Shown piece by piece: positions 1 to 23,630 of a stretch of DNA of 23,852 bases (positions are counted from its first letter, which is position 1; each line of letters begins with the position of its first letter). The stretch is from IMG/VR virus record IMGVR_UViG_2585427740_000001; one strand, 5' to 3'. This DNA is from a virus. Taxonomy: Duplodnaviria; Heunggongvirae; Uroviricota; Caudoviricetes. Position numbers and translations under genes: made by a program. The notes under the pieces were generated by a model. It was not told the DNA's origin. It did not search any database and worked only from the letters and a program-made list of their open reading frames with translations.

Positions 1-1284
1 TTACTTCTTCGCCTCTGCAACCACTTTACTACCCACGCCGCGGTTATTGTATTCCCACATGCGGTTGTAGTTAGTGTCATTCAGATTGCGCTGTATTTCG
101 TCGTTATCATCTACGCTGCCGGTATTACCCGCAAACGGACGATTAGAGATCACCGCATCGGCCCACGGTTTAGCCGTGTTAAAACCTTCGTTGATGGCGC
201 TATCACGGATCACCACCTGACCGTTGGTATTGGCATCAACATCCAGCGAGCGGCCCAGTTGCGCCACACCATCACCGAAAGCATTGAAACGGCTGTTTAC
301 GGCGAGGAAACCGTAGTAAATGTTGGACAGCGTAGCCGGTGCAAACACATACGCTTCTTGCTGAGTACGTGAGTTCACCACGCGGAATTCGGTGTTATCG
401 AACACCACTGCGCCGCGACCAGAAACGATATCCACATCCCCTTCAATGTAGCTGTTGGTCACCAGCGTACGCGGCTGACGATTTGTTTCCAGACGGTTCT
501 GCACACCGCTGTTGGTGACAAAGAAGGTGTTCTGACGACCGAGAATGTTAACGTTGTTAATCTGTACCTGGTCACCATCAGTACGCAGTGCCACCGCCGG
601 ATGGTTACCTGCATCTACGCTATCGCCCAGCGTGTTTTCGATGGTCAGATTTTGCAGTTGCAGGCCATTGTTTTGTGACCAGAAGACCGCAGAGCAGAGA
701 ACACCGATACTGTCGCTGCGTTTGCTCTGGCAGCTATCGTACATATACCACGCTGGTTTACCTGGCATATATTTGCCGCGCGGGTTGACGTCGTGACGCC
801 AGTCGGCAGGGCTCATGCCACCATCAAGGGAAAGCCCAATCTTCACATCAATCGGTTTTTCACCTGTACCGTACAGAGTAATTCCACCCGGAGCGGCAGG
901 GACATATACCGTTCCCTGATACTCACCAGGCATCACGGCAATATACTGGCGCTTGTTGGTACGCTTGATAATTGCCGCATCTACCGCCGCCTGAATCGTG
1001 GTATGCGTTACACCTTGAGTGCCCGCCGGGCCGACAACAAAGTCAGGTTGCGCAGGCAGGGTAATCGGGGAAGGATTCCACGCTGCAGCACCTGGTGTCA
1101 GGGATGCAAAATAGTGTTGAGCATCGAAATTCTGCGCTTCTTTTGCCGACAGAATCGGGCGAGAAGAGGTACCAGGCGCGGTTTGATCAGAAGGACGTTG
1201 ATCGGGCGGGGTTGAGCTACAGGCGGTCAGCGTCACGCCAAAAGCCAATGCCAGCGCCAGACGGGAAACTGAAAATGTGTTCAC
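1..1284 (-). CDS. ybhC: YbhC-like outer-membrane lipoprotein (pectinesterase / acyl-CoA thioesterase family); chromosomal flank of the lambda attachment site
   Basis: 427-aa ORF complete in window (stop at 1-3). N-terminal signal peptide with lipobox LTAC. Sequence recalled as E. coli YbhC, which borders attB-lambda. Confidence 0.88.
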   Translation of the reverse strand: MNTFSVSRLALALAFGVTLTACSSTPPDQRPSDQTAPGTSSRPILSAKEAQNFDAQHYFASLTPGAAAWNPSPITLPAQPDFVVGPAGTQGVTHTTIQAAVDAAIIKRTNKRQYIAVMPGEYQGTVYVPAAPGGITLYGTGEKPIDVKIGLSLDGGMSPADWRHDVNPRGKYMPGKPAWYMYDSCQSKRSDSIGVLCSAVFWSQNNGLQLQNLTIENTLGDSVDAGNHPAVALRTDGDQVQINNVNILGRQNTFFVTNSGVQNRLETNRQPRTLVTNSYIEGDVDIVSGRGAVVFDNTEFRVVNSRTQQEAYVFAPATLSNIYYGFLAVNSRFNAFGDGVAQLGRSLDVDANTNGQVVIRDSAINEGFNTAKPWADAVISNRPFAGNTGSVDDNDEIQRNLNDTNYNRMWEYNNRGVGSKVVAEAKK

Positions 1285-1418: not shown

Positions 1419-2489
1419 TTATTTGATTTCAATTTTGTCCCACTCCCTGCCTCTGTCATCACGATACTGTGATGCCATGGTGTCCGACTTATGCCCGAGA
1501 AGATGTTGAGCAAATTTATCGCTTATCTGCTTCTCATAGAGTCTTGCAGACAAACTGCGCAACTCGTGAAAGGTTGGCGGATCCCCTTCGAAGGAGAGAC
1601 CTGATGCTTTTCGTGCGCGCATAAAATACCTTGATACTGTGCCGGATGAAAGCGGTTCACGACGAGTAGATGCAATTATGGTTTCTCCGCCAAGAATCTT
1701 TTTGCATTTATCAAGTGTTTCCTTCATTGATATCCCGAGAGCATCAACATGCAATGTTGTTGGGATGGCAATTTTTACGCCTGTTTTGCTTTGCTCGACA
1801 TAAAGATATCCATCTACGATATCAGACCACTTCATTTCGCATAAATCACCAACTCGCTGCCCGGTAACAACAGCCAGTTCCATTGCAAGTCTAAGCCAAC
1901 ATGGTGATGATTCTGCTGCTTGATAAATTTTCAGGTATTCGTCAGCCGTAAGTCTTGATCTCCTTACCTCTGATTTTGCAGCGCGAGTGGCTGCGACCGG
2001 GTTTGTTGTTATATGGCCTTCAGCCATAGCCTCTCGGAATGCATCGCTCAGTGTTGATCTGATTAACTTGGCTGATGCCGCCTTTCCCTCGTCTATGTAT
2101 CCATTGAGCATTGCCGCAATTTCTTTTGTGGTGATGTCTTCAAGTGGAGCATCAGGCAGACCCCTCCTTATTGCTTTAATTTTGCTCATGTAATTTATGA
2201 GTGTCTTCTGCTTGATTCCTCTGCTGGCCAGGATTTTTTCGTAGCGATCAAGCCATGAATGTAACGTAACGGAATTATCACTGTTGATTCTCGCTGTCAG
2301 AGGCTTGTGTTTGTGTCCTGAAAATAACTCAATGTTGGCCTGTATAGCTTCAGTGATTGCGATTCGCCTGTCTCGGCCTAATCCAAACTCTTTACCCGTC
2401 CTTGGGTCCCTGTAGCAGTAATATCCATTGTTTCTTATATAAAGGTTAGGGGGTAAATCCCGGCGCTCATGACTTCGCCTTCTTCCCAT
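1419..2489 (-). CDS. int: Phage lambda integrase (tyrosine recombinase)
   Basis: 356-aa ORF whose translation (MGRRRSHERRDLPPNLYIRNNGYY...) matches lambda Int as recalled. Sits adjacent to attL P' arm and overlaps xis. Confidence 0.97.
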   Translation of the reverse strand: MGRRRSHERRDLPPNLYIRNNGYYCYRDPRTGKEFGLGRDRRIAITEAIQANIELFSGHKHKPLTARINSDNSVTLHSWLDRYEKILASRGIKQKTLINYMSKIKAIRRGLPDAPLEDITTKEIAAMLNGYIDEGKAASAKLIRSTLSDAFREAMAEGHITTNPVAATRAAKSEVRRSRLTADEYLKIYQAAESSPCWLRLAMELAVVTGQRVGDLCEMKWSDIVDGYLYVEQSKTGVKIAIPTTLHVDALGISMKETLDKCKKILGGETIIASTRREPLSSGTVSRYFMRARKASGLSFEGDPPTFHELRSLSARLYEKQISDKFAQHLLGHKSDTMASQYRDDRGREWDKIEIK

Positions 2490-2685
2490 TTCTGATCCTC
2501 TTCAAAAGGCTACCTGTTACTGGTCGATTTAAGTCAACCTTTACCGCTGATTCGTGGAACAGATATTCTCTTCCATCCTTAACCGGAGGAGGGAATATCC
2601 TGCATTCGCGCACCCATCGACGAACTGTTTCAAGGCTTCTTGGGCGTCGCTGGCGAGCGTTCCACTCCTGAAGTGTCAAGTACAT
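2467..2685 (-). CDS. xis: Excisionase Xis
   Basis: 72-aa ORF (MYLTLQEWNARQRRPRSLETVRRWVRE...) matching lambda Xis as recalled. 23-nt overlap with int start, as in lambda. Confidence 0.95.
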   Translation of the reverse strand: MYLTLQEWNARQRRPRSLETVRRWVRECRIFPPPVKDGREYLFHESAVKVDLNRPVTGSLLKRIRNGKKAKS

Positions 2686-2724
2686 CGCAAAGTCTCCGCA
2701 ATTACACGCAAGAAAAAACCGCCA

Positions 2725-2892
2725 TCAGGCGGCTTGGTGTTCTTTCAGTTCTTCAATTCGAATATTGGTTATGTCTGCATGTGCTATCTGCGCCCATATC
2801 ATCCAGTGGTCATAGCAGTCATTGATGTTCTCTGCTTCGATAACTCTGTTGAATGGTTCTCCATTCCATTCACCTGTGACTCGGAAGTGCAT
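2725..2892 (-). CDS. Small hypothetical protein (55 aa) directly upstream of xis
   Basis: ATG at 2892 preceded by GGAG 8 nt upstream. Below the 60-aa ORF-track cutoff; found by hand translation (MHFRVTGEWNGEPFNRVIEAENINDCYDHWMIWAQIAHADITNIRIEELKEHQAA). Confidence 0.45.
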   Translation of the reverse strand: MHFRVTGEWNGEPFNRVIEAENINDCYDHWMIWAQIAHADITNIRIEELKEHQAA

Positions 2893-2974
2893 TTATCATC
2901 TCCATAAAACAAAACTCGCCGTAGCGAGTTCAGATATAATTTCCACCAAAGGCAGTAGTTGCTGATGCTAAGAA

Positions 2975-3403
2975 TTATTCAATATCTATTCCTGTAATAT
3001 CTTTTATCTTTTTCCTTGCAAAGCCTTTTGCTAGTGATTTTGAAACACTTATTAGTGTACTAATTCCCTCATCCTTAAAGTTTGTTTTTATAGTTTGCCA
3101 GACCTCCTTTTGACGCAAGTCAGCAATAAAATCATGCCCTCTTGCTGTCAACCTCAGTGGTACTTCGATCCAACTATATCCAACACCTTCCCCTAACTCG
3201 TTGGACATTATATGACCGAACCCAGGTTTTCCATCAACCCTGACTATTAATTCGTAGTCGCATAATAATCGCATATGGAAAATAAAATTTTGGTCATATC
3301 TATTAAAGCCATTATCCTCTAGTTCACTAAGCATCGTGTCAGGGCCATGAGTTTTTTCGAATGCGATAAGTAGATCTTTTAGATATTGCTGGTCTAATTT
3401 CAT
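2975..3403 (-). CDS. Hypothetical protein, 142 aa, AT-rich orphan gene in the xis-exo accessory region
   Basis: Clean ORF with GGAGG 7 nt upstream of ATG. Composition more AT-rich than the flanking int/xis. No family recognised. Confidence 0.7.
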   Translation of the reverse strand: MKLDQQYLKDLLIAFEKTHGPDTMLSELEDNGFNRYDQNFIFHMRLLCDYELIVRVDGKPGFGHIMSNELGEGVGYSWIEVPLRLTARGHDFIADLRQKEVWQTIKTNFKDEGISTLISVSKSLAKGFARKKIKDITGIDIE

Positions 3404-3431
3404 TGCCGCCTCCGTGACATGTCACAGAGAT

Positions 3432-3770
3432 TTATATCATTAATTTTGTTTCGTGCCAGCCTTTGGTCACCCAGCATTGTGAGTCACCATTACACGGGCA
3501 TGAATTAACAGGAACTCTCTCGCCGCACTTACCGCAACGTTTTCTGCTGATCGATTTTATACGCCAGCGCACACGTGCATCATCCTGGCGGCTCAGTAAC
3601 GCGATGTACTCACCAAACTCGTAAGGCGCATGCCTGAAGCGGCGCGTGGCTCAGTTACGATCCAGCATTTCAATTTCCTGAGCATCAAGTACAAGCTCCA
3701 GCTTACGCATACCGGATGATGCTTGCTTGGCTCTCTGATCGACTTTGCGCTCTGCTGATGATTTAGCCAT
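3432..3770 (-). pseudogene. Small ORF interrupted by an in-frame TGA: 39 codons (3651-3770), opal stop, then 71 further in-frame codons (Cys-rich, CxxC...CxC) ending at TAA 3432-3434
   Basis: Hand translation of the minus strand: MAKSSAERKVDQRAKQASSGMRKLELVLDAQEIEMLDRN*ATRRFRHAPYEFGEYIALLSRQDDARVRWRIKSISRKRCGKCGERVPVNSCPCNGDSQCWVTKGWHETKLMI. AGGA-type RBS before the ATG. Confidence 0.35.
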
Positions 3771-3965
3771 TCTGCTTTTCCTGCATTAGGAGAAAGACAA
3801 TCATGGCGGCGCGGATACTTCCGGTATCTTTTTACTCGATATTACCCTTCAATGGCACATACAAGAAGAGAGCCATCAACAGGAGTGAGTGAGGAATCGA
3901 CAACCAGCAACGCTTAATTATCTATAGTGTCGTATTTGCTTCATAAAATATGGCGAATAACACAA

Positions 3966-3999
3966 AGCCCGCAGCAGCTCATTGTGCGGGCTTTTCTTA
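3966..3999 (+). terminator. Stem-loop (AGCCCGCA / TGCGGGCT, 8-bp stem) followed by TTTCTTAT; candidate intrinsic terminator
   Basis: Inverted repeat 3966-3973 / 3984-3991 with T-rich tail, read directly. Lies between the 4064-4679 gene and the small ORFs at 3432-3770. Confidence 0.4.
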
Positions 4000-4063
4000 T
4001 ACATACTTCCTAGAGATAATTCTATGGAGGCATTAAATTAATACTGTCATTGGTAATATCATA

Positions 4064-4679
4064 TTATCTAAAAGTCTTTCCACTTTTAACGTCTAGGTAT
4101 ATTCTGTTCGACAACGTCATTCCTCCGCAATATGTGAAATAGATGTTTTTCCCCTTATTGCTTGATGCCATCCACCCTCCGATTTCCTTAAAGTCGCTTT
4201 CCGTGCAGACCCCTTCGTTTATTAACTTCCTAGCTGCCGAAGAAAACTCTTTTTTGTATATACGGTAGTCATCAGATCCTTTGATTAAAGTATCATCTCC
4301 GCTCGCATTTTCAGCAGGATCTGATGGCCTTTCACTGCTAAGATCACTAAGTTTAACCCATTCTGAAAACTTGCCATTGACGATTCCGTTTTTTCTTGTG
4401 CAGGATTTATTACCTTCTTTAATATATTCGCTTTCCCCTCCCACACATGAGGCTGAATATGGCTCAGTTATACGAACCCATTCACCTTTTTTTTTCTAGA
4501 AAATCTACGCCTTCCCTGAAAAATAGTTTCCCAGCCACTCCACATTTACTTGAAGGGCAGGTATGTCTTTCCGTTCGATCAACAACAACCCAAAGTCTTG
4601 ATTCATTTTTTGCCATTGCCGATGGTATTTGAGATGAGACAATTAACGTAAGCCCTAAAATTAGTATTGATTTTTTCAT
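4064..4679 (-). pseudogene. Secreted protein gene (about 205 aa if intact) split by a frameshift inside an A9 homopolymer tract
   Basis: Upstream ORF (4482-4679) starts with a signal peptide (MKKSILILGLTLIVSSQIPSAMA) and has a good RBS. It ends at TGA just after nine consecutive A (plus-strand T9 at 4487-4495). The downstream ORF (4064-4444) continues open in the other frame through the tract; removing one A fuses them. Confidence 0.65.
4487..4495. repeat. Homopolymer tract (T9 on plus strand, A9 in the coding strand) at the frameshift point of the 4064-4679 gene
   Basis: Counted directly in the sequence. Confidence 0.9.
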
Positions 4680-4977
4680 TGTAATTTCCTTTTACTTTTT
4701 ACAAAGCGTTTAATCATGGCTGATTATCTTTAAGCGTAGTAACAGCCTTGTGCGAAACATGTTACCAAATCGCCATTTCAGTGTATCCGCAGTTAGGCTG
4801 CCACTTCAAGGATTCCTAATTACATGGTACGTAAGCGTAAAATCCCGTTGGTTGTCGGGTAATAACTCTGATCAAATCTCCCTTGTCTTTTGCTCTTACG
4901 TATGCAGCTCTTGTGTATTCAACCCAGGCCTCCAGTTCAGCAATACGCTTACTTCCATCCGAGATAACACCTTCTAC

Positions 4978-5229
4978 TCACGCTGCTCGTTGAGTTTTGA
5001 TTTTTGCTGTCTCCAGCTCAACACGCAGTTTCCTCACCGTTAGCGCAATATCCTCGTTCTCCTGGTCGCGGCGTTTGATGTACTGCTGGTTTCTTTCCCG
5101 TTCATCCAGCAGTGTCAGCACAATCGATGGTGTTACCAGCTCATGGAAAAGGTCCGCGTCAAATCCCCAGTTGTCATGCATTGCCTGCTCTGCCGCTTCA
5201 CGCAGTGCCTGAGAGTGAATTACGCTCAC
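4978..5229 (-). CDS. Hypothetical coiled-coil protein (83 aa to the first stop); the frame continues for 53 more codons after an in-frame TGA (to TAG at 4816-4818)
   Basis: GTG start overlaps the stop of the upstream TraR-like gene (GTGA overlap). Downstream region 4816-4977 is open in the same frame but has no start codon of its own. Confidence 0.5.
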   Translation of the reverse strand: MSVIHSQALREAAEQAMHDNWGFDADLFHELVTPSIVLTLLDERERNQQYIKRRDQENEDIALTVRKLRVELETAKIKTQRAA

Positions 5230-5447
5230 TTCGAACCTCTCTGTTTACTGATAAGTTCCAGATCCTCCTGGCAACTTGCACAAGTCCGACAACCCTGAAC
5301 GGCCAGGCGTCTTCGTTCATCTATCGGATCGCCACACTCACAACAATGAGTGGCAGATATAGCCTGGTGGTTCAGGCGGCGCATTTTTATTGCTGTGTTG
5401 CGCTGTAATTCTTCAATTTCTGATGCTGAATCAATGATGTCTGCCAT
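5226..5447 (-). CDS. TraR/DksA-family C4 zinc-finger protein (phage-encoded RNA polymerase-binding regulator family)
   Basis: 73-aa ORF with CxxC...CxxC spacing (CCECGDPID...CRTCASC) typical of the TraR/DksA C4 zinc finger. Confidence 0.8.
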   Translation of the reverse strand: MADIIDSASEIEELQRNTAIKMRRLNHQAISATHCCECGDPIDERRRLAVQGCRTCASCQEDLELISKQRGSK

Positions 5448-6180: not shown

Positions 6181-6861
6181 TCATCGCCATTGCTCCCCAA
6201 ATACAAAACCAATTTCAGCCAGTGCCTCGTCCATTTTTTCGATGAACACCGGCACCATCTCGTCAAAACTCGCCATGTACTTTTCATCCCGCTCAACCAC
6301 GACATAATGCAGTCCTTCACGCTTCATACGCGGGTCATAGTTGGCAAAGTACCAGGCATCTTTTCGTGTCACCCACATGCTGTACTGCACCTGGGCCATG
6401 TAAGCCGACTTTATGGCCTCGAAACCACCGAGCCGGAACTTCATGAAATCCCGGGAGGTAAACGGGCATTTCAGCTCAAGGCCATTGCCGTCACTGCATA
6501 AACCATCGGGAGAGCAGGCGGTGCGCATACTTTCGTCGCGATAGATGATCGGGGATTCAGTAACATTCACGCCGGAAGTGAATTCAAACAGGGTTCTGGC
6601 GTCGTTCTCGTACTGTTTTCCCCATGCCAGCGCCTTAGCATTAACTTCCGGAGCCACACCGGTGCAAACCTCAGCCAGCAGGGTGTGGAAGTAGGACATT
6701 TTCATGTCAGGCCACTTCTTTCCTGAGCGGGGCTTGGCTATCACGTTGTGAACTTCTGAAGCGGTGATGACGCCGAGCCGTAATTTGTGCCATGCATCAT
6801 CCCCCTGTTCGACAGCTCTCACGTCGATCCCGGTACGCTGCAGGATAATGTCCGGTGTCAT
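6181..6861 (-). CDS. exo: Lambda exonuclease (Red-alpha)
   Basis: 226-aa translation ([30 protein letters not shown]...) matches lambda Exo as recalled. Confidence 0.97.
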
Positions 6862-7306
6862 GCTGCCACCTTCTGCTCAGTGGCTTTCTGTTTCAGGAAT
6901 CCAAGAGCTTTCACTGCTTCGGCCTGTGTCAGTTCTGACGATGCGCGAATGTCGCGGCGAAATATCTGGGAACAGAGCGGCAATAAGTCGTCATCCCATG
7001 TTTTGTCCAGGGCAATCAGCAGAGTGTTAATCTCCTGCATGGTTTCATCGTTAACCGGAGTAATGTCGCGTTCCGGCTGACGTTCTGCGGTGTATGCGGT
7101 ATTTTCGACAATGCGCTCGGCTTCATCCTTGTCATAGATACCAGCAAATCCGAAGGCCAGACGGGCACACTGAATCATGGCTTTATGCCGTAACATCCGT
7201 TTGGGATGCGACTGCCACGGCCCCGTAATTTCTCTGCCTTCGCGGGTTTTGAATGGTTCGCGGCGGCATTCATCCATCCATTCGGTAACGCAGATCGGAT
7301 GATTAC
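6858..7306 (-). pseudogene. bet: bet (Red-beta), 5'-truncated: only the C-terminal ~145 codons remain
   Basis: Translation from ...NHPICVTEWMDECRREPFKTREGREITGPWQSHPKRMLRH... to the C-terminus matches lambda Bet as recalled. The N-terminal ~115 codons are absent and the frame runs into ren-derived sequence on the opposite strand. Confidence 0.88.
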
Positions 7307-7426
7307 CGGTTCGCTACCAGGGAAGAACGGGAAGGAAAGGTGAGCACGAATCTGATTTTCAAGGAGTGTCGCCAGAGTGCCGCGATGAAGCGGGTGTTGG
7401 CATTTTATCGCGGCAATTTTCAATAG
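7304..7426 (+). pseudogene. ren: ren 3' fragment (last ~40 codons: YRFATREEREGKVSTNLIFKECRQSAAMKRVLAFYRGNFQ*)
   Basis: Plus-strand frame matches the recalled C-terminus of lambda Ren (...YYRFATREEREGKMSTNLVFKECRQSAAMKRVLAVYGVKR). It begins abruptly at the bet breakpoint. Confidence 0.7.
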
Positions 7427-7463
7427 ACTATGTACATAAAAATATCATTTTTTTAATACATGT

Positions 7464-7655
7464 CTAATTATTGGACGAAATTGGTTTTTGCTTTGGTTTA
7501 GTTAGCCTAGCAATCAAGCCAGAGGCAATAATGATGATCCAAGCAATTTGATGCAATGCTACTCCAATATAAGAACCTTTATAGATAATAAAGGCATAGA
7601 TCGCTAGAAACGAAATAAATATCCATAACGAAAGTTGATAAATTTTGGCGCGCAT
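7464..7655 (-). CDS. Possible small two-helix membrane protein (63 aa) in AT-rich insert
   Basis: ORF with two hydrophobic stretches; no convincing RBS; AT-rich DNA can yield spurious ORFs. Confidence 0.3.
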   Translation of the reverse strand: MRAKIYQLSLWIFISFLAIYAFIIYKGSYIGVALHQIAWIIIIASGLIARLTKPKQKPISSNN

Positions 7656-7911
7656 ATTTAATCCAATCAATCAGAAAGACGAGTAATCATAGAGGTACTA
7701 TCACCCGGGTAACTATTGCTATTATGAACGGATAGGATAGAGGCTTCAATAACATATGCATCAAGTATGATGGAATATGTAGGTGAAAATGACTTGTGTC
7801 AAATTTGTGGAAATGAGTACCATGTTTCTCTGAAATTGATGTCGTTAATGGCTAGTGATAGTGAACTTTTTTACTTTATAATTCCTTTGGTTATAACAAT
7901 AAGGTAAATTT

Positions 7912-8472
7912 ATGAAGAAGATAATATTATTAGCCATGATTATTGGTTCTTTAACAGGTTGCGCTAGTGTGCCACCATTGAATTTTTCAACACCTAACGT
8001 GGGAGTTAGCCAGAAAAAAATAGATGCTGAAATTAAGTCATTAACGGTATCACTTGCTCGTCCAGATGAGCAGAAAGGGGATATCACTGCTGGTATGGAG
8101 GCTATAACTCCAATTTGGCGTGAATCTTTGCAGGAAGCACTCGACCGAATGACTATTTTTCGTGATAGTTCACCAAATACGGTTAGCTTAAATGTTAAAG
8201 TGTTGGCTCTTGACGTTCCTGCTTTTGGTGTTTCAATGACAACTAAAGCAATTGCAAGGTATGAAATAATCAACCGTGCGAATGGTGATATTATATATAC
8301 GCAGGATATTGAGTCTACCGGTACTGTTCCAGCCAGTTACGCATTCTACGGTATTGTTCGAGCACGCGAATCTGTTAATCGCGCGGTGCAAAACAACATA
8401 ACGCAGTTCTTGCAAGCATTAGAAAGTGTTGATCTTTCTCGTCCAATGTTTCCTGTTAGGGTAGCTAAATGA
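7912..8472 (+). CDS. Lipoprotein, 186 aa (signal peptide with lipobox LTGC); function unknown
   Basis: MKKIILLAMIIGSLTGCAS... lipobox; AAGG RBS about 9 nt upstream. Stop overlaps the start of the next gene (ATGA). Confidence 0.8.
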   Translation: MKKIILLAMIIGSLTGCASVPPLNFSTPNVGVSQKKIDAEIKSLTVSLARPDEQKGDITAGMEAITPIWRESLQEALDRMTIFRDSSPNTVSLNVKVLALDVPAFGVSMTTKAIARYEIINRANGDIIYTQDIESTGTVPASYAFYGIVRARESVNRAVQNNITQFLQALESVDLSRPMFPVRVAK

Positions 8473-8921
8473 AGCGATTATTCGTAATTGCTCCACTCTT
8501 AGTGTTGGTTGGATGCGCACAAAATATATCGCCAAATAGTTATTCTGTTGGCTCTGTGGGCATGGTTAATCGAACTATCGCTGGTACAGTTATTAGTGCT
8601 AGGGGGGTTGATATCAGTGGGACTTCCGCGTTAGGCGGGACTGCTGGGGCTGCCGTGGGGGCAACCGCTGGTTCTGCGCTTGGTGGGGGAGTTCGTTCTA
8701 ATATCGTTGGTGCCGTTGGTGGTGCAGTCATTGGTGGTATTGCCGGGGCAGCAATCGAATCTTCAGCAACAAAACAAACAGGCATGGAATATGTTGTCGA
8801 AACTGAGAATGGGAATTTAATGACCATTGTTCAAGGCAAAGATCCGTTATTTACTCAAGGAAGTAAGGTCCTTGTTTTATACGGAAACCCTTCTCGCATA
8901 ATAACAGACCCGCGTCACTAA
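8469..8921 (+). CDS. SlyB/Pcp-like outer-membrane lipoprotein with glycine-zipper segment, 150 aa
   Basis: Lipobox LVGCAQ. Long Gly/Ala-rich zipper (GGTAGAAVGATAGSALGGGVRSNIVGAVGGAVIGGIAGAAIE) and a C-terminal region resembling SlyB as recalled. Translationally coupled to the upstream lipoprotein. Confidence 0.8.
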   Translation: MKRLFVIAPLLVLVGCAQNISPNSYSVGSVGMVNRTIAGTVISARGVDISGTSALGGTAGAAVGATAGSALGGGVRSNIVGAVGGAVIGGIAGAAIESSATKQTGMEYVVETENGNLMTIVQGKDPLFTQGSKVLVLYGNPSRIITDPRH

Positions 8922-9111
8922 CATACCTTTTGATTTTGTAAAATCAATTCGTAATAATAAAGTCATCGGAGCTTGAACAACTCCGGTGACTTCTGCGCTA
9001 AACGGGGACGTTTATGCGCACATACAATCCAAACTCTCTTCTCCCTTCACAGATGCAGAAATGCACCTGCGATTTTTTGCATCCAGCGTCTGACCTCTGC
9101 GGAGGTGAAGC

Positions 9112-9567
9112 GTGAACCTACCACAAGATGGCATCAAACTGCATCGCGGTAACTTCACCGCTATCGGCCAGCAGATCCAGCCTTATCTGGAGGACGGAAA
9201 ATGCTTTCGCATGGTGCTTAAACCGTGGCGTGAGAAACGCAGTCTTTCCCAGAATGCACTCAGCCACATGTGGTACAGCGAAATCAGTGAATACCTCATC
9301 AGCAGGGGGAAATCGTTCGCTACCGCAGCATGGGTAAAAGATGCTCTCAAACACACATACCTCGGTTATGAAACCAAGGACCTGGTTGATGTCGTAACCG
9401 GCGAAATCACTACTATCCAGTCGTTACGCCATACCTCCGATCTTGATACCGGAGAGATGTATATCTTCCTGTGTAAGGTTGAAGCCTGGGCGGTGAATAT
9501 TGGCTGCCACCTGACTATTCCGCAGAGCTGCGAGTTCCAGCAGCTCCGCGACAAACAGGAGGCGTAA
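9112..9567 (+). CDS. ybcN: NinB/YbcN-family DNA-binding protein
   Basis: 151-aa ORF from GTG with GGAGGTGA RBS. Translation matches DLP12 YbcN as recalled; sits in the NinB position of the nin region. Confidence 0.85.
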
Positions 9568-9737
9568 TGGCTACACCGCTTATTCGTGTCATGAACGGAC
9601 ACATCTACAGAGTACCAAATCGTCGTAAGCGTAAACCGGAGCTGAAGCCTTCCGAAATACCAACACTGCTCGGATATACCGCCAGCCTGGTTGATAAAAA
9701 ATGGTTGCGACTGGCAGCAAGGAGGAGTCATGGCTGA
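9567..9737 (+). CDS. ninE: NinE-family protein (56 aa)
   Basis: Hand translation [59 protein letters not shown] overlaps the ybcN stop (TAATG). Confidence 0.7.
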   Translation: MATPLIRVMNGHIYRVPNRRKRKPELKPSEIPTLLGYTASLVDKKWLRLAARRSHG

Positions 9738-10020
9738 TTTGAGAAAAGCAGCGCGTGGTCGGGAATGCCAGGTAAGAATCCCTGGCGTATGTAATGGCAA
9801 CCCTGAAACGTCTGTACTGGCACATATCCGGCTGACTGGATTGTGCGGCACCGGTACGAAACCGCCAGACCTGATTGCCACCATTGCATGTTCTGCCTGC
9901 CACGACGAAATCGACCGCCGCACACATTTTGTCGATGCTGCATATGCAAAAGAATGCGCGCTGGAAGGTATGGCGAGAACACAGGTTATCTGGCTGAAAG
10001 AGGGGGTTATTAAGGCGTGA
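9730..10020 (+). CDS. ybcO: YbcO-family protein (DUF1364, putative nuclease), 96 aa
   Basis: ORF-track ORF 9691-10020; likely start [14 protein letters not shown]... at ATG 9730 with AGGAGG upstream. Cys/His-rich motif. Matches DLP12 YbcO as recalled. Confidence 0.8.
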
Positions 10021-10379
10021 ATACCTACAGCATCACATTACCCTGGCCTCCGAGCAATAATCGCTATTACCGCCATAATCGCGGGCGCACACACATCAGC
10101 GCAGAAGGGCAGGCATACCGCGATAACGTCACCCGAATCATTAAAAACGCAATGCTGGATATCGGCCTGGCTATGCCAGTGAAAATCCGTATTGAGTGCC
10201 ACATGCCGGATCGCCGTCGCCGTGACCTGGATAATCTGCAAAAAGCCGCTTTTGACGCACTCACCAAAGCAGGTTTCTGGCTGGATGATGCTCAGGTCGT
10301 TGATTACCGCGTTGTGAAGATGCCTGTTACCAAAGGTGGGAGGCTGGAACTGACCATCACCGAAATGGGGAATGAATGA
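10017..10379 (+). CDS. rusA: RusA Holliday-junction resolvase
   Basis: 120-aa translation ([26 protein letters not shown]...) matches RusA as recalled. Confidence 0.95.
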
Positions 10380-10516
10380 TGTTTGAGTTTAATATGGCAG
10401 AACTTCTTCGCCACCGCTGGATGCGCCTGCGCTTATATCGTTTCCCCAGTTCTGTTTTGACCGATTACCGAATACTGAGGAATTACGCCAAAACCCTGAC
10501 AGGAGCAGGAGTATGA
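10376..10516 (+). CDS. ylcG: YlcG-family small protein (46 aa)
   Basis: Hand translation [49 protein letters not shown] overlaps the rusA stop. Confidence 0.6.
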
Positions 10517-10601
10517 AGTCAGAGATAACAATCAACTAATACTGTTTTATTGATTTTTGCTTGTAATTGGCGTTCTGGTCTGATTTTTGTGGAGTAAGTT
10601 G

Positions 10602-10985
10602 ATGCGTGATATTCAGATGGTTCTTGAGCGTTGGGGAGCGTGGGCGGCTAATAATCATGAAGATGTGACCTGGTCGTCCATTGCCGCCGGTTTTAAGGGA
10701 TTAATTACTTCAAAAGTAAAATCTCGCCCGCAATGTTGTGACGATGACGCGATGATCATTTGCGGGTGCATGGCCCGTCTGAAAAAGAACAACAGCGATT
10801 TGCACGATTTATTAGTAGATTATTATGTAGTCGGTATGACATTCATGTCACTGGCAGGTAAGCATTGCTGCTCTGATGGTTATATCGGGAAAAGGTTACA
10901 GAAGGCTGAGGGTATAATTGAAGGGATGTTAATGGCATTAGATATCCGGTTAGAGATGGATATCGTTGTTAATAACTCTAATTAA
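10602..10985 (+). CDS. Q: Late-gene antiterminator Q (QuuD-like, phage 82/21 type)
   Basis: 127 aa from ATG 10602 with GGAG RBS ([24 protein letters not shown]...). Matches DLP12 QuuD as recalled. Confidence 0.9.
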
Positions 10986-11102
10986 TATGCCAATTGTTTA
11001 CTAAAAATTATTAAAAATGGGGCGTTGAGACGCCCCCAAAAATAAAGGGTAATATATAACAGAAGGTTTATATAGTTAGAAGCAAGGTTGTGCTCCTAAA
11101 GG

Positions 11103-11165
11103 AAGTGGCTTGAGGGAGCCACTTATATGTTGGGGAGGCAAAGCCTCCCGCAACATATCTTTTAG
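11103..11165 (+). terminator. Two tandem stem-loops; the second (11125-11158, ~15-bp stem) is followed by CTTTTAG; candidate tR' of the late operon
   Basis: Inverted repeats AAGTGGCT/AGCCACTT and ATATGTTGGGGAGGC/GCCTCCCGCAACATAT read directly. Lies about 140 nt downstream of Q and just past the 3' end of the convergent porin gene. Confidence 0.5.
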
Positions 11166-11173
11166 TAATCAAA

Positions 11174-12256
11174 TTAGAACTGGTAAACCATACCTACAGC
11201 AACGATATCATCGGTAGCAACGCCAGATGCTTTCGTGAAATCGCTCTTATCAATCAGGTTGATTTTGTAATCAACAAAAGTGGACATATTTTTGTTGAAG
11301 TAATAGGTTGCACCTACATCAATATATTCAACCAGGTCCTGATCACCCCACGCACCCAAGTCTTTTCCTTTAGATTGCAGGTAAGCAACGGACGGACGCA
11401 GACCGAAGTCGAACTGATATTGTGCAACTACTTCGAAGTTTTGTGCTTTGTTGGCAATATGGTTATTACCAAAAACAGTCATGTTCTGGGTTTCAGAATA
11501 GGTGGTAGCCAGATAGATGTTGTTCGCATCATATTTCAGACCAGCTGCCCATACTTCAGCATTTTGACCAGATGCATTCAGGCTGTTGTTACCGTAGATA
11601 ACCTGATTATTAGTGCGGTCAGATTTAGCATAGGTTGCACCTACACCGAATCCTTCATACTCATAAGTAGTGGAGAAACCGAAACCATCACCATTAGCTT
11701 CAGTTACGTCAGTGCGGTCATTTTTACCCTGATACTGAGCAGCAAAGTTCAGACCATCAACCAGACCAAAGAAGTCATTGTTACGATAAGTTGCAACACC
11801 TGTGGTGCGACCAGTCATGAATACATCTGTTTGGGTCCAGGTATCGCCACCGAATTCTGGCAGAACGTCGGTCCATGCACCAATATCGTATGCTACACCG
11901 TAGTTACGGCCATAATCGATGGAGCCGTAGTCACCGAATTTCAGGCCAGCGAAGGCAAGACGGGTTTTATCTTTGGAGGAACCTTGAGATTCAGCGCGGT
12001 TGCCTTTGAATTCATATTCCCACTGACCGAAACCAGTCAGTTGATCGTTGATTTGGGTTTCACCTTTGAAGCCAAGACGGGCATAAGTAGTATCACCATC
12101 ATCTGCATCATTAGAGGAGAAGTAGTGCTTAGCATTAACTTTCCCGTACAGATCCAGCTTGTTACTGTCTTTATTATAAATTTCAGCTGCCTGAGCAGAC
12201 ATCGCCATCAGTACTGATGCAGCTACAGCAGAAATTGCCACTGTTAATTTTTTCAT
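11174..12256 (-). CDS. nmpC: General porin of the OmpC/OmpF/NmpC(Lc) family
   Basis: 360 aa from [23 protein letters not shown] (signal peptide) to the C-terminal ...VGMVYQF. Resembles NmpC/Lc as recalled. The ORF-track ORF extends 20 codons further upstream, judged spurious. Confidence 0.92.
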
Positions 12257-12682
12257 CGTGAGCCCTTTTTTTGAACTATTATTAAAAAATGATGTCACTG
12301 CGCGATAAATATTCATCTAATCAATGTGATTATTTCAAGATGTAAGTTTTGGTTTCTCATTTGATTTGTGAAGTAGATCTCTATTTTTATCTGAACTTTT
12401 TCTATCGAATCCTATTCATGGCTCTTGGCTGAATAAAAATAAATCTATTAGCCAATTTATATTAATGGCTGTTATTTATAAGTGCTCTATAATTTGAAGA
12501 TTCAATTTAAACCAGCTAAAAATAACGCTGGAAATTATTTGTTGGTTATTTGTTGAGATTTGCTTATGTATTTGTAGTGGTGTTTTCAATACTCGGTAGC
12601 ATTCTCGCAAATATCATTTAGTGGTTTACGTACGTAAAAAATTGGTTATGCTGTTAAGAGTGGTTACTTCGTCACACAGCTT

Positions 12683-12716
12683 AAACCCGCCGTCGAGCGG
12701 GTTTTTCCATTTTTTG
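12683..12716 (+). terminator. Intrinsic terminator-like hairpin (AAACCCGC-CGTCGA-GCGGGTTT) followed by TTCCATTTTTT
   Basis: Perfect 8-bp GC-rich stem and T-tract read directly. Lies in the AT-rich region between the porin start and S. Confidence 0.5.
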
Positions 12717-12843
12717 AGTCTCGATATTAGCTGATAACCCAATACCTGAGTTATTCACTGACTCCGAGTCTGTTACGTTTCTGCTTTTTTGCGATACGTT
12801 GTATTCCCTCAATTTACACCCGCTTTGTCTGCGAGGTGGGGTT

Positions 12844-13059
12844 ATGAAATCCATGGATAAGTTAACAACGGGTGTCGCCTATGGCACCTCAGCAGGTAGT
12901 GCCGGTTACTGGTTTTTACAGCTGCTCGATAAAGTCACGCCCTCACAGTGGGCAGCAATAGGTGTGCTGGGTAGCCTGGTATTTGGCCTGCTGACGTACC
13001 TGACAAACCTTTATTTCAAGATTAAAGAAGATAAGCGCAAGGCTGCGAGAGGTGAATAA
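12844..13059 (+). CDS. S: Class II holin (phage 21 S-type pinholin) with dual-start motif MKSMDK
   Basis: Translation [71 protein letters not shown] resembles S21 as recalled. Two Met codons three codons apart; two TM segments. Confidence 0.9.
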
Positions 13060-13556
13060 TGCCTCCATCATTACGAAAAGCCGTTGCTGCTGCTATTGGT
13101 GGCGGAGCAATTGCTATAGCATCAGTGTTAATTACTGGCCCAAGTGGTAACGATGGTCTGGAAGGTGTCAGCTACGTACCATACAAAGATATCGTTGGCG
13201 TATGGACTGTATGTCACGGACACACCGGAAAAGACATCATGCTCGGTAAAACGTATACCAAAGCAGAATGCAAAGCACTCTTGAATAAAGACCTTGCCAC
13301 TGTCGCCAGACAAATTAACCCGTACATCAAAGTCGATATACCGGAAACAACGCGCGGCGCTCTTTACTCATTCGTTTACAACGTGGGTGCTGGCAATTTC
13401 AGAACATCGACGCTTCTTCGCAAAATAAACCAGGGCGATATCAAAGGCGCATGTGATCAGCTACGTCGCTGGACATATGCTGGCGGTAAGCAATGGAAAG
13501 GTCTCATGACTCGTCGTGAGATTGAGCGTGAAATCTGTTTGTGGGGTCAGCAATGA
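13059..13556 (+). CDS. R: SAR endolysin (T4-lysozyme-like muramidase with N-terminal signal-anchor-release domain)
   Basis: 165 aa with a Gly/Ala-rich weakly hydrophobic N-terminus ([20 protein letters not shown]) followed by a lysozyme-like core. Start overlaps the holin stop. Confidence 0.92.
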
Positions 13557-14014
13557 ACAGAGTAACCGCGATTATCTCCGCTCTGGTTATCTGCATCATC
13601 GTCTACCTGTCATGGGCTGTTAATCATTACCGTGATAACGCCATTACCTACAAAGCCCAGCGCGACAAAAATGCCAGAGAACTGAAGCTGGCGAACGCGG
13701 CAATTACTGACATGCAGATGCGTCAGCGTGATGTTGCTGCGCTCGATGCAAAATACACGAAGGAGTTAGCTGATGCGAAAGCTGAAAATGATGCTCTGCG
13801 TGATGATGTTGCCGCTGGTCGTCGTCGGTTGCACATCAAAGCAGTCTGTCAGTCAGTGCGTGAAGCCACCACCGCCTCCGGCGTGGATAATGCAGCCTCC
13901 CCCCGACTGGCAGACACCGCTGAACGGGATTATTTCACCCTCAGAGAGAGGCTGATCACTATGCAAAAACAACTGGAAGGAACCCAGAAGTATATTAATG
14001 AGCAGTGCAGATAG
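13553..14014 (+). CDS. Rz: Rz inner-membrane spanin subunit
   Basis: 153 aa, N-terminal TM then coiled coil. ATG overlaps the R stop (ATGA). Confidence 0.85.
13773..13955 (+). CDS. Rz1: Rz1 outer-membrane lipoprotein spanin subunit, embedded in the +1 frame of Rz
   Basis: 60 aa with lipobox VVGCTS and proline-rich segment (PPPPPAW...PPPDW). AGGAG RBS 8 nt upstream. Lies entirely inside Rz. Confidence 0.8.
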
Positions 14015-14045
14015 AGTTGCCCATATCGATGGGCAACTCATGCAA

Positions 14046-14339
14046 TTATTGTGAGCAATACACACGCGCTTCCAGCGGAGTATAAATGCCTAAAGTAATA
14101 AAACCGAGCAATCCATTTACGAATGTTTGCTGGGTTTCTGTTTTAACAACATTTTCTGCGCCGCCACAAATTTTGGCTGCATCGACAGTTTTCTTCTGCC
14201 CAATTCCAGAAACGAAGAAATGATGGGTGATGGTTTCCTTTGGTGCTACTGCTGCCGGTTTGTTTTGAACAGTAAACGTCTGTTGAGCACATCCTGTAAT
14301 AAGCAGGGCCAGCGCAGTAGCGAGTAGCATTTTTTTCAT
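14046..14339 (-). CDS. bor: Bor lipoprotein (serum-resistance-associated)
   Basis: 97-aa translation MKKMLLATALALLITGCAQQTFTVQNKPAAVAPKETITHHFFVSGIGQKK... matches lambda Bor as recalled. Confidence 0.92.
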   Translation of the reverse strand: MKKMLLATALALLITGCAQQTFTVQNKPAAVAPKETITHHFFVSGIGQKKTVDAAKICGGAENVVKTETQQTFVNGLLGFITLGIYTPLEARVYCSQ

Positions 14340-14629
14340 GGTGTTATTCCCGATGCTTTTTGAAGTTCGCAGAATCGTATGTGTAGAAAATTAAACAAAC
14401 CCTAAACAATGAGTTGAAATTTCATATTGTTAATATTTATTAATGTATGTCAGGTGCGATGAATCGTCATTGTATTCCCGGATTAACTATGTCCACAGCC
14501 CTGACGGGGAACTTCTCTGCGGGAGTGTCCGGGAATAATTAAAAACGATGCACACAGGGTTTAGCGCGTACACGTATTGCATTATGCCAACGCCCCGGTG
14601 CTGACACGGAAGAAACCGGACGTTATGAT

Positions 14630-15040
14630 TTAGCGTGGAAAGATTTGTGTAGTGTTCTGAATGCTCTCAGTAAATAGTAATGAATTATCAAAGGTATAGT
14701 AATATCTTTTATGTTCATGGATATTTGTAACCCATCGGAAAACTCCTGCTTTAGCAAGATTTTCCCTGTATTGCTGAAATGTGATTTCTCTTGATTTCAA
14801 CCTATCATAGGACGTTTCTATAAGATGCGTGTTTCTTGAGAATTTAACATTTACAACCTTTTTAAGTCCTTTTATTAACACGGTGTTATCGTTTTCTAAC
14901 ACGATGTGAATATTATCTGTGGCTAGATAGTAAATATAATGTGAGACGTTGTGACGTTTTAGTTCAGAATAAAACAATTCACAGTTTAAATCTTTTCGCA
15001 CTTGATCGAATATTTCTTTAAAAATGGCAACCTGAGCCAT
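14630..15040 (-). CDS. ybcV: YbcV-family protein (DUF1398)
   Basis: 136 aa from [24 protein letters not shown]... matching DLP12 YbcV as recalled. The ORF-track ORF extends to 15163; the upstream 41 codons are judged non-coding. Confidence 0.8.
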
Positions 15041-15325
15041 TGGTAAAACCTTCCATGTGATACGAGGGCGCGTAGTTTGCATTATCGTTTTTATCGTTTC
15101 AATCTGGTCTGACCTCTTTGTGTTTTGTTGATGATTTATGTCAAATATTAGGAATGTTTTCACTTAATAGTATTGGTTGCGTAACAAAGTGCGGTCCTGC
15201 TGGCATTCTGGAGGGAAATACAACCGACAGATGTATGTAAGGCCAACGTGCTCAAATCTTCATACAGAAAGATTTGAAGTAATATTTTAACCGCTAGATG
15301 AAGAGCAAGCGCATGGAGCGACAAA

Positions 15326-15532
15326 ATGAATAAAGAACAATCTGCTGATGATCCCTCCGTGGATCTGATTCGTGTAAAAAATATGCTTAATAGCACCATT
15401 TCTATGAGTTACCCTGATGTTGTAATTGCATGTATAGAACATAAGGTGTCTCTGGAAGCATTCAGAGCAATTGAGGCAGCGTTGGTGAAGCACGATAATA
15501 ATATGAAGGATTATTCCCTGGTGGTTGACTGA
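15326..15532 (+). CDS. ybcW: YbcW-family small protein (68 aa)
   Basis: Translation [40 protein letters not shown]... matches YbcW as recalled. Confidence 0.75.
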
Positions 15533-15696
15533 TCACCATAACTGCTAATCATTCAAACTATTTAGCCTGTGACAGAGCCAACACGCAGTCTGTCACTGTC
15601 AGGAAAGTGGTAAAACTGCAACTCAATTACTGCAATGCCCTCGTAATTAAGTGAATTTACAATATCGTCCTGTTCGGAGGGAAGAACGCGGGATGT

Positions 15697-15891
15697 TCAT
15701 TCTTCATCACTTTTAATTGATGTATATGCTCTCTTTTCTGACGTTAGTCTCCGACGGCAGGCTTCAATGACCCAGGCTGAGAAATTCCCGGACCCTTTTT
15801 GCTCAAGAGCGATGTTAATTTGTTCAATCATTTGGTTAGGAAAGCGGATGTTGCGGGTTGTTGTTCTGCGGGTTCTGTTCTTCGTTGACAT
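15697..15891 (-). CDS. ylcI: YlcI-family protein (DUF3950), 64 aa
   Basis: Translation MSTKNRTRRTTTRNIRFPNQMIEQINIALEQKGSGNFSAWVIEACRRRL... matches YlcI as recalled. Confidence 0.75.
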   Translation of the reverse strand: MSTKNRTRRTTTRNIRFPNQMIEQINIALEQKGSGNFSAWVIEACRRRLTSEKRAYTSIKSDEE

Positions 15892-16059
15892 GAGGTTGCC
15901 CCGTATTCAGTGTCGCTGATTTGTATTGTCTGAAGTTGTTTTTACGTTAAGTTGATGCAGATCAATTAATACGATACCTGCGTCATAATTGATTATTTGA
16001 CGTGGTTTGATGGCGTAGATGCACGTTGTGACATGTAGATGATAATTATTATCATTTTT

Positions 16060-16279
16060 CGGGTCCTTTCCGGCGATCCGACAGGTTACGGGGCGGCGAC
16101 CTCGCGGGTTTTCGCTATTTATGAAAATTTTCCGGTTTAAGGCGTTTCCGTTCTTCTTCGTCATAACTTAATGTTTTTATTTAAAATACCCTCTGAAAAG
16201 AAAGGAAGCGACAGGTGCTGAAAGCGAGCTTTTTGGCCTCTGTCGTTTCCTTTCTCTGTTTTTGTCCGTGGAATGAACA
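16060..16279. other. cos: cos site: cosN with 12-nt cohesive end GGGCGGCGACCT at 16091-16102, followed by cosB (terminase small-subunit binding region) up to the nu1 start
   Basis: Sequence ...CGACAGGTTACG GGGCGGCGACCT CGCGGGTTTTCGCTATTTATGAAAATTTTCCGGTTTAAGGCG... matches the recalled lambda genome ends joined at cos. Confidence 0.88.
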
Positions 16280-16795
16280 ATGGAAGTCAACAAAAAGCAG
16301 CTGGCTGACATTTTCGGTGCGAGTATCCGTACCATTCAGAACTGGCAGGAACAGGGAATGCCCGTTCTGCGAGGCGGTGGCAAGGGTAATGAGGTGCTTT
16401 ATGACTCTGCCGCCGTCATAAAATGGTATGCCGAAAGGGATGCTGAAATTGAGAACGAAAAGCTGCGCCGGGAGGTTGAAGAACTGCGGCAGGCCAGCGA
16501 GGCAGATCTCCAGCCAGGGACTATTGAGTACGAACGCCATCGACTTACGCGTGCGCAGGCCGACGCACAGGAACTGAAGAATGCCAGAGACTCCGCTGAA
16601 GTGGTGGAAACCGCATTCTGTACTTTCGTGTTGTCGCGGATCGCAGGTGAAATTGCCAGTATTCTCGACGGGATCCCCCTGTCGGTGCAGCGGCGTTTTC
16701 CGGAACTGGAAAACCGACATGTTGATTTCCTGAAACGGGATATCATCAAAGCCATGAACAAAGCAGCCGCGCTGGATGAACTGATACCGTTATGA
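16280..16795 (+). CDS. nu1: Terminase small subunit Nu1, C-terminally altered (171 aa; the last ~10 residues of lambda Nu1 are replaced by a single L and a stop)
   Basis: Translation MEVNKKQLADIFGASIRTIQNWQEQGMPVLRGGGKGNEVLYDSAAVIKWYAERD... matches lambda Nu1 through ...AALDELIP, then diverges at about 16789. Confidence 0.9.
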   Translation: MEVNKKQLADIFGASIRTIQNWQEQGMPVLRGGGKGNEVLYDSAAVIKWYAERDAEIENEKLRREVEELRQASEADLQPGTIEYERHRLTRAQADAQELKNARDSAEVVETAFCTFVLSRIAGEIASILDGIPLSVQRRFPELENRHVDFLKRDIIKAMNKAAALDELIPL

Positions 16796-16817
16796 GTTTA
16801 CGGATACGCTGGGGCTG

Positions 16818-17222
16818 GTGACGTCATTCAGCTATGCAGGAGACAAGAATCGCCAGCTGACCCATTACAGCGATACCCGCTGGCATGAAGATTCCGTTCG
16901 TAACCGCTGGTTCAGCGTAATGGCGGGGCCGTCTGTGCGCGTGAATGAATGGTTCAGCGCGTATGCGATGGCGGGTGTGGCTTACAGCCGTGTGTCGACT
17001 TTCTCCGGGGATTATCTCCGCGTAACTGACAACAAGGGGAAAACGCACGACGTGCTGACCGGAAGTGATGACGGTCGCCACAGCAACACGTCTCTGGCGT
17101 GGGGAGCTGGCGTGCAGTTTAACCCGACCGAATCCGTGGCCATTGATATTGCTTATGAAGGCTCCGGCAGTGGCGACTGGCGCACTGACGGTTTCATCGT
17201 GGGTGTCGGTTATAAGTTCTGA
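16818..17222 (+). pseudogene. lom: lom (Ail/Lom/PagC-family outer-membrane protein), 3' fragment lacking signal peptide and proper start
   Basis: C-terminal ...SVMAGP...AYAMAGVA...IAYEGSGSGDWRTDGFIVGVGYKF matches the lambda Lom C-terminus as recalled. Upstream sequence is nu1; no ATG or signal peptide. Confidence 0.85.
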
Positions 17223-17250
17223 TTAGCCAGGTAACACAGTGTTATGACAG

Positions 17251-17276
17251 CCCGCCGGTTCAGGCGGGCTTTTTTG
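17251..17276 (+). terminator. Rho-independent terminator (GCCCGCC-GGTTCAG-GCGGGC followed by TTTTTT)
   Basis: Perfect GC-rich hairpin plus T6, read directly. Immediately downstream of the lom fragment. Confidence 0.85.
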
Positions 17277-17286
17277 TGGGGTGAAT

Positions 17287-21689: not shown

Positions 21690-21751
21690 CGGTCTCGAAA
21701 ACCGGAGTAGGGGCAACTCTACCGGGGGTTCAAATCCCCCTCTCTCCGCCA
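21690..21751 (+). other. 3' fragment (~62 nt) of tRNA-Ser(CGA): anticodon stem-loop, variable arm, T-arm and acceptor 3' end with CCA; 5' half absent
   Basis: CGGTCTCGAAAACCGGAGTAGGGGCAACTCTACCGGGGGTTCAAATCCCCCTCTCTCCGCCA matches the recalled 3' portion of E. coli serU-type tRNA-Ser. The preceding sequence cannot form the acceptor/D arms. Confidence 0.75.
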
Positions 21752-23590: not shown

Positions 23591-23630
23591 AACAGACACC
23601 TCAGAGTCATTTAAGATGGCTTAAAGAGAG

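Follow-up and report, generated by a model that had tools for sequence, protein, structure and literature searches.

A DUF2513-family gene in the ea8.5 slot of a defective lambda-type prophage, and its place in a widespread uncharacterised family

Results

Organisation of the locus

The window, by which we mean the entire stretch of 23,852 nucleotides that was analysed (IMG/VR virus record IMGVR_UViG_2585427740_000001), carries a lambda-type prophage inserted beside ybhC (att-lambda). The features at issue are these:

1..1284, minus strand: ybhC, adjoining the lambda-type prophage
1419..2489, minus strand: int of the lambda-type prophage
2467..2685, minus strand: xis of the lambda-type prophage
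2725..2892, minus strand: orf55 (PHROG 676), a homologue of lambda lambdap35, between xis and the DUF2513 gene
2912..2931, minus strand: terminator-like hairpin between the DUF2513 gene and orf55, located by a pattern scan and by alignment with the lambda ea8.5-orf55 spacer
2975..3403, minus strand: DUF2513-family gene with an ATG start and a predicted winged-helix product of 142 aa, identical to WP_000762730.1
3409..3413, minus strand: Shine-Dalgarno sequence GGAGG of the DUF2513 gene, read directly from the sequence, with a 5-nt spacer to the ATG
3414..3425, no strand assigned: perfect 12-bp palindrome GTGACATGTCAC in the 28-nt spacer, with an imperfect extension to 3410-3429
3432..3770, minus strand: zinc-ribbon pseudogene, 112 aa (PHROG 536, "transcriptional regulator"), compared with an intact Cronobacter copy

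The GGAG core of the Shine-Dalgarno sequence is retained in most of the related DUF2513 loci. Given the base composition of the gene, 142 consecutive sense codons would arise by chance with P ~6e-6, and 0 of 20000 shuffles remained open. In comparisons with relatives that are 49-76% identical, pS was 0.78-1.0 (saturated) and pN was 0.14-0.35. Since pS is saturated while pN is low, and since the open frame is so improbable, we regard the ORF as a real protein-coding gene, with homologues that are, by these comparisons, under purifying selection. The intact frame as such was dropped as a sign of selection in a decaying prophage; int, xis, orf55, and exo are intact too.

The DUF2513 gene has a GC content of 0.361 and a GC3 of 0.308; the corresponding GC values are 0.451 for int, 0.489 for xis, 0.446 for orf55, and 0.496 for the upstream zinc-ribbon pseudogene. 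An earlier note, made from the letters of the window, had described a well-formed gene with a clean ORF and a strong ribosome-binding site that is more AT-rich than int and xis, and both descriptions hold. AT-richness relative to the flanking DNA is a family-wide trait of DUF2513 genes across hosts: they lie 6-17 GC points under their flanks, in hosts that range from ~42% to 57% GC. The adjacent zinc-ribbon gene, where present, has a GC content higher than the flanks. The persistent AT-richness of the DUF2513 genes could be due to repeated transfer or to selection, e.g., for H-NS silencing.

Comparison with lambda placed the DUF2513 gene and its zinc-ribbon neighbour in the slot that lambda fills with ea8.5, in the exo-xis region; the DUF2513 gene is on the same strand as int, xis, and exo. 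Homology to lambda picks up again at ~2940, and the hairpin at 2912..2931 therefore belongs to the conserved lambda backbone. As the DUF2513 gene's own terminator it was ruled out. A crude scan of the minus strand from 2400 to 5000 found no sigma-70-like promoter, and a scan of 2300-5300 against Rfam gave no match. The gene had been described earlier as lying next to xis, at the place where lambdoid phages carry morons. The region is the correct one, but orf55 intervenes. The slot is indeed a variable one in the exo-xis region, and the gene differs in composition from its neighbours as a moron does (0.361 compared with 0.45-0.50); however, a moron in the strict sense has its own promoter and its own terminator, whereas the crude scan found no promoter-like site here and the hairpin is borrowed from the lambda backbone.

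The prophage is defective. Its bet gene is N-terminally truncated and joined to a ren fragment near 7303 (region ~6858-7425), and nothing remains of the gam-kil-cIII-N-cI-cro-cII-O-P segment, pL included. The rest of the prophage is DLP12-like, with ybcN, ninE, rusA, quuD, an ompC-like porin, essD/rrrD/rzpD, bor, nohD, and tail fibre genes. Positions 7300-23852 of the window are 100% identical to E. coli PEC1009; E. coli ATCC 8739 has a shorter prophage remnant that is cut by IS1. Terminator-like hairpins are located upstream of the DUF2513 gene on the same strand. Because pL has been lost and these hairpins lie upstream, expression of the DUF2513 copy in the window is uncertain.

Further upstream, an AT-rich lipoprotein-like gene (PHROG 8310; 4064-4679, minus strand) is split into two ORFs in the window, while its product in ATCC 8739 and PEC1009 has 204 aa. 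The split is due to one extra base in a T tract at 4487-4495, which has nine T here and eight in ATCC 8739. It could reflect slippage or phase variation, decay, or a sequencing error.

Family membership and distribution

The earlier note considered the protein an orphan that could be placed in no family. The profile searches contradict this. The 142-aa protein matched Pfam DUF2513 (PF10711) with 42.9 bits and an E value of 6.8e-11 over profile positions 1-100 of 100, which is above the curated gathering cut-off of 29.6 bits for this profile. It also matched PHROG 585, whose annotation is "function unknown", with an E value of 2.3e-34 (residues 1-135 against profile positions 1-127 of 128), and it is 100% identical to RefSeq WP_000762730.1, a "DUF2513 domain-containing protein" of E. 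coli ATCC 8739 and PEC1009. These matches show that the gene has already been catalogued, as an accessory gene belonging to a widespread uncharacterised family. No match was obtained in NCBIfam, and none to any model in PADLOC-DB v2, even at E<=1. Sequence searches of the PDB, using the single protein and a profile, returned no solved relative of DUF2513. In the searchable literature on DUF2513, YjcQ, PF10711/PHROG 585, WP_000762730.1, and the PDC-S names, we found no functional study or experiment.

Of 5426 complete E. coli genomes, 183 encode the 142-aa protein. A protein 94% identical to it is encoded by Chlobot, an isolated lambdoid phage whose DNA matches positions 2400-4800 of the window at 97.8%. 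A word-indexed search found 113 relatives across the Enterobacterales, and an exhaustive profile search at E<=1e-3 yielded at least 1515 cluster representatives (clusters at 50% identity, public data). In a scan with one genome per species, DUF2513 was found in many phyla. Among sequenced phage isolates, the domain occurs in only three of 50,697 records: Chlobot, a Klebsiella prophage-derived phage, and one Yersinia phage.

Genomic contexts of DUF2513 genes

A DUF2513 gene adjoins orf55, xis, and int in about 40 E. coli prophage loci, so the context survey that the earlier note proposed does find the gene recurring beside xis in other prophages. In prophages of Cronobacter, Serratia, and Yersinia, it occupies other variable slots. 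It is found immediately before the gene for the small terminase subunit in Cronobacter; in Serratia, it is located near int, with an Ea22-like gene on one side and an exonuclease gene on the other, and in other Serratia prophages, it sits between a gene for a 305-aa protein and DUF1367. In the prophage contigs L057-L059, a full-length AbiU homologue (PADLOC E value of 4e-199) lies ~212 nt upstream of the DUF2513 gene.

No recurrent neighbour of DUF2513 was found in 62 loci from different species in many phyla. Besides phage genes and plain housekeeping genes, the neighbours included type I restriction-modification, FRG, DUF4145, and protease genes; some chromosomal relatives adjoin type I restriction-modification genes or an FRG-domain gene. 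The product of the 305-aa gene directly upstream of DUF2513 in Serratia has a TIR/NDT-like fold, and the two genes were considered as a "split" DUF2513 and TIR pair. This candidate was weakened, as the 305-aa neighbour is normally found without DUF2513. Taken together, the contexts support DUF2513 as a dispensable, optional cargo gene of temperate Enterobacterales phages, which occupies several variable slots and has no fixed partner.

One subfamily, about 50% identical to the 142-aa protein, possesses its own conserved element of ~45 nt, located 35-60 nt before the ATG. This element is an inverted repeat, CAGGCA-N9-TGCCTG, that overlaps the extended -10-like sequence TGTGATAAT, and it stays with the DUF2513 gene even though the genes upstream vary (loci L084, L087, L089-L093, L099, L101, L102, L104, and L105; e.g., L104:4940-4965). 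The arrangement fits a candidate promoter with its own operator and would give these relatives autonomous, possibly autoregulated expression. The DUF2513 copy in the window has no comparable inverted repeat or promoter element.

The zinc-ribbon gene and the palindrome upstream of DUF2513

The zinc-ribbon pseudogene ends 28 nt upstream of the DUF2513 gene. Its frame is interrupted by an in-frame TGA at 3651-3653, and the match to PHROG 536 falls on its C-terminal remnant. In ~42 loci of the E. coli type, the zinc-ribbon gene is intact in 17 and broken by the same stop in ~22. The pair of zinc-ribbon and DUF2513 genes, separated by a spacer of 25-28 nt, recurs in prophages of E. coli, Cronobacter, Yersinia, and others, and several further DUF2513 loci have only a 3' remnant of the zinc-ribbon gene left. 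The PHROG 536 gene is found in 154 phage records, nearly all of them without DUF2513 (e.g., epsilon15, phiV10, ZF40, and phiKO2), compared with just three records for DUF2513. Its usual site is directly upstream of the terminase genes, in phiV10-type and Klebsiella-type phages, or in the nin-like region, as in ZF40. An obligate two-gene module of DUF2513 and PHROG 536 was ruled out, because the zinc-ribbon gene is a pseudogene in the window, is missing from many DUF2513 loci, and is widespread in phages that lack DUF2513.

The spacer palindrome GTGACATGTCAC has been conserved among diverged prophages, and it also occurs 3' of the zinc-ribbon gene in ZF40 (L156:1773) and in the Klebsiella phage ST11-OXA245phi3.2 (L157:1836), neither of which has DUF2513; the gene that follows the palindrome in these phages is NinB or UmuD-like. 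As an operator of the DUF2513 gene, the palindrome was ruled out, since it trails the zinc-ribbon gene in phages free of DUF2513. The palindrome goes with the 3' end of the zinc-ribbon gene. Its occurrence before a NinB or UmuD-like gene points to a module junction behind which the cargo varies; alternatively, it may be a binding site.

These contexts suggest a possible history. [quoted passage not shown] The description of the locus as a single-gene insert thus holds in part: DUF2513 is cargo of foreign composition, but in this lineage it appears to have come as a block with the zinc-ribbon gene that is now a pseudogene.

Predicted structure and conserved residues

An AlphaFold2 model of the 142-aa protein, calculated from a 40-sequence alignment, had a mean pLDDT of 93.4 and a pTM of 0.84. 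The model contains helices at residues 5-16, 25-30, and 38-49; a four-stranded wing (53-55, 64-69, 73-78, and 83-85); and C-terminal helices at 87-97, 99-108, and 114-137. The predicted fold is that of a MarR/PadR-like winged helix-turn-helix, in which the beta-wing is enlarged and three helices form a basic tail. A Foldseek search of the model against the PDB returned nothing significant, and the MarR, PadR, and HxlR profiles of Pfam and NCBIfam did not match the protein even at E<=1.

The family motifs are F-x-F-H, in the presumed recognition helix, and P-L-R-L-T-x-x-G-H-D-F (residues 82-92), in a strand-helix segment; the corresponding residues in the 142-aa protein are F40, F42, H43, R84, L85, T86, G89, H90, and F92. 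In a comparison of 77 diverse DUF2513 members, at least 90% had H43, R84, T86, and G89 conserved. The calculated pI is 5.8 for the whole protein, 5.0 (acidic) for the winged-helix core, and 9.5 (basic) for the C-terminal helices; most DUF2513 relatives have a pI between 4.6 and 6.5.

Fusions of DUF2513 to effector-like domains

Among the best 150 family representatives, ~7 are longer proteins in which DUF2513 is N-terminal and an effector-like domain has been added. In P0140, DUF2513 is followed by a CAP12/Pycsar-type TIR domain, and the protein matches the PADLOC model PDC-S35; the sequence covers profile positions 2-134, i.e., nearly the whole of the 142-aa protein, before the TIR domain starts. 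P0241 has DUF2513 followed by a TIR_2 domain, with matches to the PDC-S66 and ThsB models, and P0209 has DUF2513 followed by a DUF4062-like domain, with a match to PDC-S60. In P0126, P0215, and P0206, DUF2513 is followed by a coiled coil plus a hydrophobic tail that is AbiTi-like, with a match to the AbiTi model. P0242 also has an AbiTi-like tail, but no model matched it. Fusions of the P0140 type form a small clade of ~8 clusters within a very large TIR family with many alternative N-terminal domains. The PADLOC matches of the multi-domain relatives come only through the effector domains, and the known DUF2513-effector fusions are from environmental metagenomes and not from Enterobacterales.

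The fusions suggest that DUF2513 can act as the input module of abortive-infection proteins built from a variable sensor and a constant effector, and they hint at a role for DUF2513 in phage-host conflict. The earlier note had suspected defence or anti-defence cargo. The circumstantial evidence agrees with this suspicion, in the form of the TIR, DUF4062-like, and AbiTi-like fusions and the AbiU or TIR/NDT-like neighbours; the 142-aa protein itself, however, lacks a PADLOC match and a constant partner.

Discussion

Our preferred reading, which we hold tentatively and at somewhat less than even confidence, is that the 142-aa protein is an accessory, stand-alone winged-helix protein that binds a nucleic acid or another ligand, and that its role in phage development or in phage-host conflict is that of a small regulator or sensor. 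In an intact phage such as Chlobot, DUF2513 would be transcribed with the leftward early (pL) operon; we place it there because the gene is on the strand of int, xis, and exo and has no promoter-like site of its own. Because no neighbour recurs in the 62 loci, the protein would act alone, probably as a dimer. It would bind nucleic acid or another conserved ligand through a near-invariant surface formed by F42 and H43 together with R84, T86, G89, and H90, and by means of this binding, it would function as a small regulator or sensor, rather than having a structural or housekeeping role. Distant relatives would use this module N-terminally, as an input domain linked to TIR or AbiTi-like killing domains.

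The inverted repeat with its -10-like sequence in the subfamily is a hint of DNA binding or autoregulation in those relatives. The acidic core of the 142-aa protein, with its pI of 5.0, calls for caution, as it differs from a typical DNA-binding surface. A classical operator-specific repressor is disfavoured because the core is acidic and the putative recognition-helix residues are near-invariant throughout the family; a common ligand still fits both observations. We also count against the preferred reading that the window has no operator-like repeat of the DUF2513 gene and that the prophage is without pL, N, and cI and has terminator-like hairpins upstream of the gene. Defence, anti-defence, and plain regulation are all possible roles, and the sequence evidence separates none of them.

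A stand-alone role in defence or superinfection exclusion, in which the prophage protein senses a component of the incoming phage and blocks infection, appears unlikely to us. Either the basic amphipathic C-terminal helices would let the protein act alone, or it would recruit a host effector; it would be a minimal version of the DUF2513-TIR or AbiTi-like proteins. The fusions matching PDC-S35, PDC-S66, PDC-S60, and AbiTi speak for this role, as do the AbiU gene 212 nt upstream in three contigs, the TIR/NDT-like gene in the Serratia prophages, the AT-rich cargo character of the gene in variable prophage slots, the chromosomal relatives beside type I restriction-modification or FRG-domain genes, and the promoter-like element of the related subfamily, which is what expression in a lysogen needs. 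Set against these are the small minority that the fusions represent, the ordinary neighbours of many distant relatives, and the protein in the window itself, which has no effector domain, no PADLOC match, and no promoter-like site; the usual absence of DUF2513 beside the TIR/NDT-like gene makes their adjacency look like a shared hotspot. Rather less probable, in our estimate, is a modulator of the lysis-lysogeny decision or of host physiology that works through protein-protein contacts like Ea8.5, Orf60a, Orf61, Orf63, and Ea22, with no part in inter-phage conflict and no nucleic-acid binding. Ea8.5 is replaced at exactly the same slot, the acidic surface suits protein binding, and the exo-xis region is read within the pL operon, with its genes reported to affect lysogenisation and induction (PMC7093339). 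A lambda-specific developmental role is nevertheless unlikely given that non-lambdoid prophages use quite different slots (e.g., ahead of the terminase genes or within the nin-like region), and the relatives in many phyla and the lack of sequence similarity to Ea8.5 also count against a modulator.

Anti-defence by a decoy or sponge would turn the fusions around: the phage would make a free copy of the sensor domain of host immune proteins, which would titrate the trigger or signal or engage host DUF2513 effectors in dead-end complexes. We consider this improbable. A place in the early leftward operon suits expression at the onset of lytic growth, and the lambda anti-RecBCD gene gam belongs to the same operon. 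The protein is small and acidic, it shares its domain with TIR-bearing candidate defence proteins, and the near-invariance of H43, R84, T86, and H90 is as expected for a common ligand and not for many different DNA sites. However, DUF2513 is rare among the sequenced phage isolates and absent from the virulent phages among those 50,697 records, stand-alone copies are also found in chromosomal settings remote from phages, and the fusions come from environmental metagenomes and not from the Enterobacterales. The most specific form of this idea, that stand-alone DUF2513 is made early from pL and neutralises TIR-type or AbiTi-type abortive-infection proteins, either by binding up their trigger or signal or by interfering with their assembly, is in our judgement marginally less probable still.

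Returning to the preferred reading of a small stand-alone binder, the DUF2513 gene is an ordinary, already catalogued sequence and no new kind of element. What makes it of wider interest is that it appears to be mobile, AT-rich, single-gene cargo of temperate phages, whose domain recurs as the putative input module of TIR and AbiTi-like effectors. If a role in defence, anti-defence, or regulation were shown, thousands of "hypothetical" prophage genes would be annotated, and a sensor module would be added to the abortive-infection repertoire. A decoy or sponge, if true, would be a new anti-defence family spread through temperate phages.

Comparison with known systems

The 142-aa protein is an ordinary member of DUF2513 and PHROG 585: it passes the Pfam cut-off, aligns with PHROG 585 from end to end, and contains the family motifs. 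YjcQ (PF09639) is a related family, and several DUF2513 relatives also score on it.

Lambda Ea8.5 is a zinc-binding protein. The DUF2513 gene shares with ea8.5 the strand and the slot, which extends from the ea22-like region to the orf55-xis-int backbone; the proteins themselves are unrelated in sequence (BLASTP E = 13) and differ in fold class. In intact phages, the same pL-driven early transcription is presumed for DUF2513, Ea8.5, and the exo-xis accessory genes (PMC7093339).

With the MarR, PadR, and HxlR factors, the 142-aa protein has the predicted winged helix-turn-helix fold in common. It differs from them in the absence of a profile match, in its acidic core, in a wing enlarged to four strands, and in having no associated operator in the window. 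The effector of retron Ec86 (St85 family) has an N-terminal winged helix joined to a nucleoside-deoxyribosyltransferase-like domain; the likeness to the 142-aa protein is at the level of the fold only, and the window contains no retron components. The sensor-TIR candidates (PDC-S35, PDC-S66, and PDC-S60; CAP12/Pycsar-type TIR proteins) and AbiTi have effector domains, whereas the 142-aa protein has none and does not match their models; what the DUF2513-bearing members of these groups share with it is the N-terminal winged-helix module.
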